Below are positions 12,001-15,000 of a stretch of DNA of 18,442 nucleotides, one piece after another; position 1 is the first letter of the stretch; the number at the start of each line of letters is the position of its first letter. The stretch is taken from the IMG/VR virus record IMGVR_UViG_2531839239_000007, one strand, 5' to 3'. Origin of the DNA: a virus. Lineage: Duplodnaviria; Heunggongvirae; Uroviricota; Caudoviricetes. The position numbers are program-made.

Positions 12001-15000
12001 GACGGCCAGGATCCGCGTTAACCGGGGCAATCTGCCCGCCATTAAGCTGGGGACAGCCCGGGTCAGACTGGCCCAGCGTGGTGGAAAACTGCAGTACCGT
12101 GGCAGTGTGCTGAAGGTGGGTAAATATCTTTTCCGGGATGCGTTTATTCAGCAACTGGCGAATGGTCGCTGGCATGTGATGCGGCGTATTGATGGCAAAA
12201 ATCGTTACCCCATTGATGTGGTGAAAATCCCGCTGTCCGGACCGCTGACACAGGCATTTGAAGATGCCCGCGACCGCATCATTGCTGCGGAAATGCCGAA
12301 ACAGCTGGGGTATGCACTGAAACAACAACTGAGGTTATGGCTGACCCGATGAACCGACATACACAAATCCGCCAGGTCGTACTGGCACGCCTTCGGGAAC
12401 AGTGTGGAGACAGCGCCACGTTTTTTGACGGGCTTCCGGCATTTGTTGATGCGCAGGAACTGCCTGCCGTGGCGGTGTGGCTGAGTGATGCTCAGTACAC
12501 CGGAAAAATGACGGATGAAGATGACTGGCAGGCTGTTCTGCATATTGCTGTCTTCATCCGGGCACAGGCACCGGATTCAGAGCTGGATATGTGGATGGAG
12601 AGCACCATTTTCCCGGCCCTGAATGATGTATCGGCACTTTCCGGACTCATCGACACCCTGATCCCACTCGGTTTTAACTATCAACGTGATAATGAGATGG
12701 CCACCTGGGCGATGGCGGAAATCACGTACCAGATCACGTACACGAATTAAGGAGGTGGTAATGACCACGCCAAATCCACTGGCAAAGACGAAAGGTGCGG
12801 GGACGACGTTCTGGATGTATACCGGCAACGGCGATGCGTTTGCGAACCCTTTGTCGGACACTGACTGGCTGCGTCTTGCGATGGTGAAGGATCTGCAACC
12901 TGGCGAAATGACCGCTGATGCAGAAGATGACACTTATCTCGATGATGAAGATGCAGACTGGAAAACGACAACCCAGGGGCAGAAATCCGTTGGTGATACT
13001 TCGGCGACGCTGGCCTGGCGTCCGGGTGACAGCGGGCAGAAAAAACTGGTTCAGTTGTTCGACTCCGGTGAAGTCTGCGCGTTTCGTATCAAATATCCCA
13101 ACGGCACTGTTGATGTTTTCCGCGGCTGGCTGAGCTCACTGGGTAAAACCATTGCCTCAAAAGACGTGATGACCCGCACAGTGAAAATCAGCGGTGTGGG
13201 GCGTCCATATCTGGCAGAGGAGGGCACTGAAACTGTGGGCGTTACCGGGCTGACGGTGGCACCGGCATCCGCCAGTGTCAATGTGGGAGCAACCACCACG
13301 CTGACCTTTACAGTAAAACCTGACGGAGCCAGTGACAAAGCGATCAGTGTGCATTCGACAGATCCACAGACAGCCACTGTGACCCTGAACGGACTTGTGG
13401 CCACGGTGAAAGGCGTGAAGCAGGGCAGCGTCAGCATTGTGGGCATGACCGCTGACGGGAATTTTGTGGCTGTGGCTGCGGTGACTGTCAGCGCTGCAGG
13501 TTAACAGGACGATACTCATCATTTGCCCCGGTTATCCGGGGCTTTTTTGCAGGTGGAGAACATGATGTTTCTGAAACAGGGCACGTTTAATTATGAAAAG
13601 CAGTCCGTGGTGCTCAGTGAGCTGTCCGGGCTGCAGAGAATTGAATATCTGGCGTTTGTTCAGCAGCGAACGGCAAAGTTTGATGCCGAAGAGGGAGAAC
13701 TGCCGGAGGCTGAACGACAGATTGCTTTTCTGCGGATGGGGATGGATATCAATGCTTGGCTGGTTTCCCGCTCACTGTGGAATGCGGAACAGTCTCAGGA
13801 TGTTGAGACGCTTTGCGCATCCGTTATTACAACATGGTCGTATGATGCCCTGGGAGCGGGGGCGGAGATGGTTCTGTCGCTGAGCGGTATGGGAGCCATT
13901 GAGAATGCCGGGGATTTGGAGCATGAGGTGCTGACGCCGGAAAAGTCCTGACGCGGGAAATGCAGTTTGTCATGCGGCTTGCCCGGGAGTTCCGGCGGGC
14001 AGACTGGCGGCGGATGCTGTCGGAAATGTCGGCCACTGAGCTTGGTGAGTGGGGCGATTATTTCCGGATGCAGAGCTTCAGTGATGTGTGGATGGATGCG
14101 CAGTTTGCCTCGCTGAAGGCATTGATCGTGAGAATGGTGTCCGGTAGCAGTGATGCTGCGGTGGCTGATTTCAGCCTTTTACCGGAAGAGAACGGGATAC
14201 CGGAGCGAACGGACGAAGAACTGATGCATCTTGGGGAAGGTATTTCCGGAGGTGTGCGTTATGGACCAGATAGCCAACCTGGTCATTGATTTGGGGATTG
14301 ATGCGGCAGAGTTTAAAAATGAAATTCCCCGTATCAAAAACCTTCTGAATGGTGCAGCCAGCGATGCAGAACGGTCTTCTGCCCGTATGCAGCGTTTTAT
14401 GGAGCGTCAGACTCAGGCCGCCCGGCAGACAATGCAGGCGGCTTCTTCGGCTGCAACAGCCGCATCCGTCCATGCGCAGACGGTGGAGAAGAGCGCACAG
14501 GCTCATGAACGCATGGCCCGCGAGGTGGAGCAAACCCGCCAGCGTATGGAGGCACTGAGCCAGAAAATGCGCGAGGAACAGGCGCAGGCCATGGCTCTGG
14601 CGGAGGCTCAGGATAAAGCGGCTGCTGCGTTTTATCGTCAGATTGACAGTGTGAAACAGGCCGGTGCGGGGCTGCAGGAATTACAGCGTATTCAGCAACA
14701 GATCCGACAGGCCAGAAACAGTGGCGGGATTGGTCAGCAGGATTATCTGGCGCTGATTTCTGAGGTTACGGCGAAAACCCGTGTTCTTACACAGGCTGAG
14801 GAAGAGGCTACCCGACAGAAAGTGGCGTTTATCCGTCAGCTTAAAGAGCAGGCAACCCGCCAGAATCTTTCTTCTTCTGAGTTGCTTCGTGCTAAGGCTG
14901 CCCAGCTGGGGGTAAGCAGTGCTGCAGAAGTGTATATCCGCAAAATGGAGCAGGCAGGAAAAGCCACGCATTCGCTGGGTCTGAAAAGTGCAGCAGCCCG

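Follow-up and report, generated by a model that had tools for sequence, protein, structure and literature searches.

Probable programmed −1 ribosomal frameshifting at a family-typical G_GAA_AAG site in the tail genes G and T of a lambda-like phage

The overlapping tail genes G and T in the window (the whole 18,442-nt stretch of the caudoviricete record IMGVR_UViG_2531839239_000007) are very probably connected by a programmed −1 ribosomal frameshift of the lambda G/GT type at the heptamer G_GAA_AAG. As the earlier note had pointed out, this heptamer is not a strict X_XXY_YYZ motif: its YYZ part (A_AAG) is canonical, and its XXY part is GAA. Because the same departure occurs in 20 of 28 G/T lineages (loci clustered at 80% GT identity), it represents a family-typical variant and provides no grounds for excluding the site.

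Overlapping reading frames of G and T

The window has the gene order Z-U-V-G-T-H and the corresponding lambda-family domains. The overlapping ORFs of G and T are located between the major tail tube gene V (12761..13504) and the tape measure gene H, whose start overlaps the 3′ end of T by 29 nt (Table 1). A terminator-like hairpin separates V from G; the records of Ayreon, mEp460, and N15 list its equivalent as a terminator, and it is likely to be an attenuator preceding G/T/H.

The upstream ORF of the overlapping pair encodes a gpG-family chaperone (PF06894, Phage_TAC_2; E = 1.8e-39, 134.9 bits against a cutoff of 27). An alternative start at ATG 13562 would extend the product to 129 aa, but the ORF ends with TGA 13949-13951 either way. 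In the −1 frame, a TGA at 13924-13926 is followed by an open stretch from 13927 to 14289, so that the change of frame is confined to an overlap of 25 nt. These boundaries and the position of the heptamer agree with those reported in the earlier note. The 3′ end of G reads GAG GTG CTG ACG CCG GAA AAG TCC TGA, and the overlap begins with the last base of GAG. The downstream ORF lies in the −1 frame relative to G and bears the T domain. In the predicted GT fusion of 241 aa, join(13565..13945,13945..14289), with the junction ...TPEK/VLTREMQF..., PF06223 (Phage_tail_T) is detected with E = 2e-14 together with Phage_TAC_2. Both ORFs are intact.

An inspection of all codon pairs between 13927 and 13948 leaves GAA AAG as the only one at which A-site re-pairing is possible. 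The bare 7-mer is uninformative, as GGAAAAG occurs eight times in the window, with 2.5 copies expected. Two further copies in the G_GAA_AAG frame (213 and 1116) lie within an unrelated esterase gene, which indicates that the heptamer is not strongly avoided. What exceeds chance is the placement of the heptamer (in the 25-nt overlap, in the correct frame, and with an invariant Lys codon) together with its conservation.

Table 1. Features of the G/T region (positions are those of the window)
Feature	Position	Strand	Basis
Terminator-like GC hairpin with T-run, between V end (13504) and G	13525..13548	+	All-GC stem of 7 bp followed by T6
Gene G, tail assembly chaperone, 0-frame product, 128 aa	13565..13951	+	Pfam and PGAP ("phage tail assembly chaperone G")
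SD-like GAGGTG, preceding the heptamer by 8 nt; candidate lineage-specific stimulator	13925..13930	+	Inferred, weak
Only span permitting a G-to-T frame change, 25 nt	13927..13951	+	Opening of the −1 frame and G stop
Slip site G_GAA_AAG, G frame	13939..13945	+	Sequence; identical N15 heptamer annotated as slippery; lineage conservation
T segment in the −1 frame, first codon GTC 13945-47, stop 14287-89	13945..14289	+	PF06223 in the fused product
ATG from which a separate T protein of 109 aa is annotated	13960..13962	+	PGAP and phage records
Tape measure gene H	14261..17326	+	TMP_2 and Tape_meas_lam_C domains

Conservation of the slip site

A comparison over homologous G/T pairs, which the earlier note had called for, shows that the shift site is kept at the homologous position in relatives. 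Among the 28 lineages, 20 carry G_GAA_AAG, four G_GGA_AAG, two G_GCA_AAA, one A_AAA_AAG, and one G_GGA_AAA. G_GAA_AAG is present at 204 of 232 loci, and the variants in the family also include G_GCA_AAG and one A_GAA_AAG; P-site re-pairing would be poor in both of these and in G_GCA_AAA. All 28 lineages have the slip-site Lys at their anchored site, and it is also invariant in a six-sequence GT alignment. Around the aligned codon, N15, HK225, mEp213, Eeyore, and Gifsy-2 read G_GAA_AAG, lambda and Turner G_GGA_AAG, and one Stx2d phage A_AAA_AAG. Among 88 copies of the present phage group, the heptamer is invariant.

GAA, AAG, and the preceding G are held at the nucleotide level. The base 5′ of the P-site codon is G in 26 of 26 free cases, compared with 41% at comparable third positions (naive binomial 7e-11), and it persists even where the codon that it ends specifies another amino acid (CCG, GCG, CTG, TTG, GTG). 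In all 20 lineages with G_GAA_AAG, Glu is encoded by GAA (never GAG) and Lys by AAG (never AAA); in the rest of G, GAA accounts for 58% of the Glu codons and AAG for 35% of the Lys codons. The −1 frame is open across the site in 28 of 28 lineages, at times by just 3-4 codons, and the overlap of some relatives comprises only 16 nt with no other usable site (e.g., TCA CTG GAA AAG TAG in L072).

The surprise implied in the earlier note is therefore unwarranted: the GenBank record of N15 labels GGAAAAG "slippery sequence for -1 translational frameshift", and G_GAA_AAG is ordinary because it is the commonest version among the relatives. The same note had left the choice between a near-cognate P-site re-pairing at G_GAA_AAG and another site or mechanism; the comparative data favour the former, and the latter is unsupported.

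Proposed mechanism of frameshifting

Most ribosomes would decode GAA AAG TCC TGA and release G, whereas a small fraction would slip back by one base while GAA is bound by tRNA-Glu (P site) and AAG by tRNA-Lys (A site). For the tRNA-Lys of E. coli (anticodon mnm5s2UUU), the putative re-pairing from AAG (13943-45) to AAA (13942-44) would be cognate; the tRNA-Glu (anticodon mnm5s2UUC) would move from GAA (13940-42) to GGA (13939-41) via G-C, a central G·U, and A-U. After the slip, translation would continue in the T frame (GTC CTG ACG ...) to 14289 and yield the GT fusion at low frequency. By analogy with lambda, the G part of GT would bind the tape measure protein, and the T part would recruit the tail tube protein.

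In E. coli, frameshifting occurs most readily at X_XXA_AAG motifs, and A_AAG ranks first among tetramers, with A_AAG tetramers alone reaching ~0.15%, i.e., background, unless a strong stimulator is present (PMC4066793). A G·U mismatch in the P site costs only ~5 kJ/mol, which is partly offset by the gain from AAG to AAA (PMC6787027). The intrinsic −1 transition rates of three sequences including G GAA AAG have been estimated at 3-10 per second; in a reconstituted system with wild-type EF-G, G GAA AAG gave mainly the 0-frame product and was termed unfavourable for slippage (PMC6924986). The requirement of lambda is only ~1 GT per 30 G (PMC5009743). In the literature searched, we found no experimental work on the present G/T sequence, and a full-text search returned no paper on GGAAAAG as a frameshift or slippery site in phage tail genes; within the searchable literature, the in vivo efficiency of G_GAA_AAG has apparently never been reported.

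It is conceivable, though rather doubtful, that tRNA-Lys slips alone on A_AAG, as at the hexanucleotide sites of cdd and IS1222, with no role of tRNA-Glu and with an efficiency set by the context or by stimulators; the GT product would be the same. Such slippage would be in line with the CGA_AAG sites that function in nature (PMC5009743), with the family variants whose P-site re-pairing is poor, and with the SD-like GAGGTG upstream of the heptamer in this lineage. However, the retention of the heptamer's first G in 26 of 26 cases, through amino-acid changes, would not be expected from a tetramer or hexamer model, and the strong stimulator that tetramers require (PMC4066793) is not conserved in any form among the G/T lineages. 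The conserved first G argues for some contribution of the P site, where tRNA-Glu shifted from GAA to GGA would still form two Watson-Crick pairs besides the G·U.

Stimulatory elements

GAGGTG may act as a stimulator in this lineage. Its duplex with the 3′ end of 16S rRNA has an energy of −6.9 kcal/mol, and the element is polymorphic within the group (GAGGTG/GAGGCG). An upstream SD as a feature of the entire family was rejected: the family-wide enrichment of SD-like elements is weak (p = 0.02 only), they are not conserved across lineages, none was detected in N15 and HK225, and that of lambda is weak (−2.5 kcal/mol).

No dnaX-type stem-loop was found 5-8 nt past the heptamer. When 13946-14035 and 13900-14060 are folded as single sequences, the results do not surpass those of shuffled sequences (MFE z about −1), and the RNAalifold consensus of the 28 lineages is essentially unstructured (−1.2 kcal/mol) and has no covarying pairs. 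A search of Rfam yielded no frameshift element but one chance match to a lncRNA (E = 0.89).

Independent translation of T and other alternatives

The separate T gene that databases annotate from ATG 13960 onwards is probably an artefact of gene calling. If T were made independently from this codon, either de novo or by termination-reinitiation after the G stop, a frameshift would be unnecessary, but this is unlikely. PGAP and phage records annotate such a separate T, and its ATG is situated 8 nt past the TGA of G, so some free T is possible in this lineage. In addition, an exact look-up of fused GT proteins in the protein collection searched recovers that of lambda, whereas those of this phage family and N15 are missing. 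By contrast, the SD pairing upstream of the ATG is negligible (−1.1 kcal/mol), and the codon is present in just 2 of 28 lineages; all 28 have the slip site and a −1 frame open across it. Eight of the 28 lineages are devoid of any ATG, GTG, or TTG ahead of the conserved LAREF motif (T core), Gifsy-2 has an identical site but no T-frame start, and annotators differ on the start of T (13960 versus 14026 in Ayreon). T has neither a conserved start codon nor a conserved ribosome-binding site of its own among the 28 lineages. Moreover, it is the G part that tethers T to the tape measure protein in lambda (PMC5009743). We therefore discarded ATG 13960 as the chief source of T, both for its rarity and for its poor SD pairing.

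A decayed, non-functional remnant, in which the heptamer would be a mutated lambda-type site, is very improbable. The prophage of the window is defective, as its portal gene has one extra nucleotide compared with that of phage Ayreon and is split in two, but the G/T segment is 99.5-99.9% identical to those of the isolated phages Ayreon and phi458 (annotated hosts E. coli K12/MC1061), G and the T-frame ORF are undamaged, and the heptamer is the majority form (20 lineages) rather than a derived lesion. Slippage of RNA polymerase on the A-run, which would remove one A from the mRNA (−1 nt) and place T in frame with G, can practically be dismissed, because productive slippage requires homopolymer runs of ~8-9 or more, the slip site has only four A and nothing else specific to offer, and the conserved AAG (rather than AAA) and first G fit ribosomal rules.

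Comparison with known systems

Frameshifting of the lambda G/GT type is textbook knowledge. The site of lambda (G_GGA_AAG, as the earlier note had it; UniProt P03735), which reads GCG GGA AAG in the alignment, occupies the same position in V-G-T-H and involves the same Pfam families. Both systems share AAG as the invariant Lys slip codon with an A before it, a −1 ORF that overlaps the 3′ end of G, and a T without a conserved start of its own. They differ in the P-site codon (GGA in lambda, GAA here), so that the re-pairing here would include a central G·U instead of being fully Watson-Crick. In lambda, the G stop lies five codons past the site (one codon here) and the post-junction T comprises 139 residues (114 here); the protein identity is ~36%.

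N15 genes 14/15 (AF064539), HK225, and mEp213 have an identical GGAAAAG at the aligned codon; the record of mEp213 cites a similarity to phi80. They differ from the present phage in their protein sequences (~36-40% identity), in the preceding codon (GCG versus CCG here), in the position of the 0-frame stop (five codons downstream), and in the lack of an SD-like element upstream. An experimental measurement for the N15 site was not found in the literature searched. The closest outgroup among phage records, STM1039 / STM1041.1n of Gifsy-2 (54% identity), shares an identical ACG CCG GAA AAG TCC TGA and has GAGG at the same upstream position. Its T is annotated within a G+G′ frameshift hybrid; because Gifsy-2 lacks a T-frame ATG past the junction, no separate T can be called there.

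The hexanucleotide NNA_AAG slip sites of cdd in B. subtilis (A_CGA_AAG) and IS1222 (G_CGA_AAG) rely on an upstream SD-like element or structure. At both sites, tRNA-Lys shifts from AAG to AAA with imperfect re-pairing in the P site, which results in low-level frameshifting (PMC5009743). Here, by contrast, the P-site tRNA would keep two Watson-Crick pairs and a G·U, the first base is conserved, and neither an SD-like element nor a structure is conserved across the G/T family. The dnaX site of E. coli (A_AAA_AAG, preceded by an SD and followed by a hairpin) also involves a −1 slip with tRNA-Lys on AAG, and the window has an SD-like hexamer at a comparable upstream distance but no stable or conserved downstream hairpin. 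The efficiency expected here is a few percent or less, compared with 50-80% for dnaX-type sites.

Implications

Both the G/GT kind of frameshift and its GGAAAAG variant are already known, and the annotation in N15 is decades old. The present case is of modest interest in that a near-canonical heptamer is the majority form and its first G is under nucleotide-level constraint; scientifically, it adds little. It does raise an issue of annotation: RefSeq/PGAP and most phage records show a stand-alone T of 109 aa and no GT fusion, and the prophage family is very common (1849 of 5426 complete E. coli genomes).

Recent biophysical work treats G_GAA_AAG as a poorly slippery comparison sequence. We tentatively propose, as a possibility that we consider far from established, that G_GAA_AAG is the predominant and selectively maintained programmed slip site of enterobacterial lambda-like G/T, and that either the central G·U re-pairing in the P site suffices for biologically adequate frameshifting without a conserved RNA stimulator or an unrecognised feature of the context lifts its efficiency. 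Features suggested in this respect are an E-site codon ending in G, a nascent acidic peptide, and lineage-specific SD-like hexamers (GAGGTG). If this were true, the 20 lineages with G_GAA_AAG versus four with G_GGA_AAG might reflect a G:GT ratio that is tuned below that of lambda.

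Organization of the G/T overlap

Re-examination of G and of the open reading frame in the -1 frame reproduced all coordinates of the earlier note, which had described a G/T overlap without the canonical slippery heptamer of phage lambda. The product of G (128 or 129 amino acids, C-terminus ...HEVLTPEKS) matches Phage_TAC_2 (PF06894). The 25-nt overlap (G GTG CTG ACG CCG GAA AAG TCC TGA) contains the heptamer G_GAA_AAG, an imperfect version of X_XXY_YYZ that aligns with GCG GGA AAG in lambda (J02459). A fusion of the two frames at the Lys codon would have 241 amino acids, and its sequence scores for both Phage_TAC_2 and Phage_tail_T (PF06223).

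GGAAAAG occurs eight times in the window (2.5 expected; eight copies were reached in 0 of 200 shuffles). Two copies are present in the slip-competent phase G_GAA_AAG within a 645-aa DUF1737/SASA-esterase/DUF6645 gene that is unrelated to G/T, where the sole effect of a -1 shift would be truncation of the protein; G_GAA_AAG is therefore tolerated in ordinary genes. The bare 7-mer is unremarkable, and information lies solely in the place of the heptamer and its conservation.

Coordinates of the features discussed (shown strand of the window)
Feature	Position	Remark
DUF1737/SASA-esterase/DUF6645 gene	160..2097	645 aa
In-phase G_GAA_AAG copies in this gene	213-219, 1116-1122
Portal gene, two pieces	7531-9112	ORFs 7531..8655 and 8750..9112
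T-run insertion in portal gene	about 8626-8632	1 nt
Protease-capsid ORF	8865/9125-11084	CLP_protease + Phage_capsid_4
Hairpin between V and G	13525-13548	7 G-C pairs + T6
G	ATG 13562 or 13565 to TGA 13949-51	128/129 aa
Stop in -1 frame	13924-26
GAGGTG	13925-30	8 nt 5' of heptamer
Open -1 frame (T)	13927-14289	stop 14287-89
G_GAA_AAG	13939-45	proposed slip site
Annotated T starts	ATG 13960; equivalent of 14026	PGAP, mEp460, Tritos; Ayreon
H start	ATG 14261	29 nt upstream of T-frame stop end

Presumed slip sites of homologous G/T pairs

The comparison of homologous G/T pairs that the earlier note had called for covered 11 phage records, 73 loci from a one-genome-per-species collection, and 159 viral contigs, each anchored at the last in-frame A_AAR within its own G/-1 overlap; clustering of 153 loci at 80% GT identity gave 28 lineages. 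Like the window, N15, HK225, mEp213, Eeyore, and Gifsy-2 carry G_GAA_AAG; lambda and Turner have G_GGA_AAG, and an Stx2d phage has A_AAA_AAG. G_GAA_AAG is found in 20 of the 28 lineages, G_GGA_AAG in four, and A_AAA_AAG in one; the others have G_GCA_AAA (two lineages) or G_GGA_AAA (one lineage), each with TAG as the next codon. GGAAAAG is shared by 77 of the 79 loci that make up the N15-like viral set; of the other two, one carries GGCAAAG and one AGAAAAG. The GenBank record of N15 already contains a misc_feature ("slippery sequence for -1 translational frameshift") whose coordinates are exactly those of GGAAAAG. Gifsy-2, the nearest outgroup found among the phage records (54% identity), shares the sequence ACG CCG GAA AAG TCC TGA with the window, and in its annotation T forms part of a frameshift hybrid. 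The lack of a canonical heptamer is thus not an oddity of the window but a departure common to most of the family; because it is also annotated in N15, both the kind of site and the variant are already known.

The real share of G_GGA_AAG may be still lower, because many lambda-lineage members from non-enteric assemblies are evidently lambda DNA contamination. In assemblies assigned to Kitasatospora, Oceanobacillus, Leeuwenhoekiella, Shewanella, Pseudomonas, and other genera, low-coverage contigs (L057-L068, L079-L081) have G/T end contexts identical to those of phage lambda and look like such contamination. A contig from a "Bacillota" MAG (L014) shows 99% identity to the E. coli prophage of the window.

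In five loci (L022, Kluyvera; L024, Ewingella; L055, Providencia; L036 and L072, Providencia), a 0-frame stop directly follows the Lys slip codon (CTG GCA AAA TAG, ATG GGA AAA TAG, CTG GAA AAG TAG), and three of them have AAA instead of AAG. In these variants, an A-site stop beside the P-site tRNA-Lys might itself favour the shift.

Constraint on the heptamer

The junction Lys is invariant in the GT protein alignment and is followed by a gap-free T core, (V/A)(L/F)xxE(L/R)xFxxxLAREFxRxDWR, that is conserved in the aligned proteins. In all 20 G_GAA_AAG lineages, Glu is encoded by GAA and Lys by AAG, compared with 58% of Glu and 35% of Lys codons at other positions of the same G genes. The base preceding the P-site codon is G in all 26 lineages with codon choice, although the codon that it terminates varies in amino acid (CCG, GCG, CTG, TTG, GTG) and G accounts for 41% of comparable third positions; one codon further upstream, the third position varies freely. 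The probability of this constancy is 7e-11 by a naive binomial and 0.011 when codon types alone are counted; because the lineages share kinship, the true value lies between the two. Since the first G is untranslated in the T frame, the slip itself offers the best explanation for its constraint. One exception (A_GAA_AAG) shows that this constraint, although strong, is not absolute. In the phage group of the window, the heptamer is invariant (88 copies, 22 distinct contexts), which is uninformative because divergence within the group is too low.

Probable mechanism of the shift

The anticodon of tRNA-Glu is mnm5s2UUC. After a -1 shift, this tRNA would meet GGA and form G-C, G·U, and A-U pairs, so that a tandem slip on G_GAA_AAG would place a central G·U in the P site. 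Of the heptamers in E. coli, those of the form X_XXA_AAG shift most readily, and A_AAG leads the tetramers (PMC4066793); the reason is the stronger pairing of tRNA-Lys(UUU) with AAA compared with AAG. Sites intermediate between a hexamer and a heptamer have also been described, some with G_GA or G_GU as X_XX (PMC5009743). In the dnaX system, replacing A·U by G·U in the P site costs about 5 kJ/mol, and the change from AAG to AAA in the A site returns about 2.9 kJ/mol (PMC6787027). In a reconstituted system with wild-type EF-G, most of the product from G GAA AAG was in the 0 frame, but this sequence responded to EF-G mutants as G GGA AAG did; intrinsic -1 transition rates of three tested sequences were estimated at 3-10 per second (PMC6924986). 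Lambda requires just about one GT per 30 G (PMC5009743). Taken together, these findings suggest a tandem slip of low efficiency on G_GAA_AAG. The accessible literature yielded no published efficiency for G_GAA_AAG; that of the window's site is probably several-fold below that of lambda.

A pure single-tRNA slip, which would yield an identical protein, is a live sub-alternative that agrees with the variants G_GCA_AAR and A_GAA_AAG but not with the conserved first G. Tetramers alone shift at a background level of about 0.15% and need a strong pseudoknot to reach 5.6% (PMC4066793). Folds of 13946-14035 and 13900-14060 had stabilities no greater than those of shuffled sequences (z = -1.1 and -1.0), the 28-lineage consensus (82 gap-free columns from the heptamer on) folded at -1.2 kcal/mol without covarying pairs, and an Rfam search returned nothing relevant to frameshifting. 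The GAGGTG upstream of the heptamer pairs with the anti-SD sequence at -6.9 kcal/mol and has counterparts (GAGG / AGGA) in Gifsy-2 and a Citrobacter relative (L021); SD-like elements at this place were not detectable in N15 and HK225 and weak in lambda (-2.5 kcal/mol). Across the family, such elements are weakly enriched (p = 0.02) in this acidic, GA-rich region, and the hexamer is polymorphic in the window's own group (GAGGTG or GAGGCG). It is possibly a lineage-specific helper at most.

Possible translation of T from a separate start

RefSeq/PGAP and most phage records annotate T as a protein of its own, starting at ATG 13960, and none of the annotations examined (including MF807953, JQ182728, and NZ_CP016755) uses a ribosomal-slippage join. 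This ATG lies 8 nt past the G stop, and some reinitiation may occur there in the window's lineage, but the pairing energy of the 15 nt upstream with the 3' end of 16S rRNA is only -1.1 kcal/mol, the codon is present in only two of the 28 lineages, and eight lineages lack any ATG, GTG, or TTG between the T-frame opening and the conserved core. The -1 frame, however, is open across the slip site in all 28 lineages, sometimes by merely 3-4 codons; the 16-nt overlap of L072 (TCA CTG GAA AAG TAG) leaves no room for another slip site. A separate start is not the conserved route to T. The fused GT of lambda is deposited (P03735) and present in a collection of 15 billion proteins, from which the exact fusions of the window's family and of N15 were absent.

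Prophage background and gene module

Pfam scans of the window revealed a lambda-like morphogenesis module with a head part (terminase gpA, lambda-family portal, ClpP-capsid fusion) and a tail part (Z, U, the tube protein V with a Big_2 domain, G, T, and the tape measure H). The ClpP-like prohead protease and the major capsid protein share one long ORF, labelled as a fusion protein by PGAP. Because H starts ahead of the T-frame stop, the GT reading frame terminates within H. The strong terminator-like hairpin in the 57-nt V-G gap has counterparts annotated at the equivalent place in Ayreon, mEp460, N15, and HK225, and probably acts as a conserved partial terminator, reducing expression of G/T/H relative to V.

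The portal gene is a single 502-aa CDS in Ayreon but is split in the window by an insertion in a T-run (CTGAATTTTTTCC vs CTG-AGTTTTTCC). Across the 181 nt that include the insertion (8540-8720), the O157-type genome FORC_044 matches the window at 100% identity, and it has two CDSs annotated as "phage portal protein"; identity over this segment reaches at least 99% in 287 E. coli records. The split probably renders the prophage defective in head assembly; +1 recoding at a candidate site (TTT_T_TCC) is conceivable.

Relation to the lambda system

The G/T pair of the window belongs to the lambda G/GT frameshift system of tail assembly chaperones; the one defining feature that it does not strictly show is a perfect X_XXY_YYZ heptamer. 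Its 801-nt G/T segment (13500-14300) shares 99.9% identity with Escherichia phage Ayreon, 97.5-99.6% with 16 other phage records (including mEp460, cdtI, phi458, and Tritos), and 100% with O157:H7-type E. coli prophages such as that of FORC_044, and has matches in 1849 of 5426 complete E. coli genomes. Annotation of the GT fusion is lacking in this widespread group of prophages.
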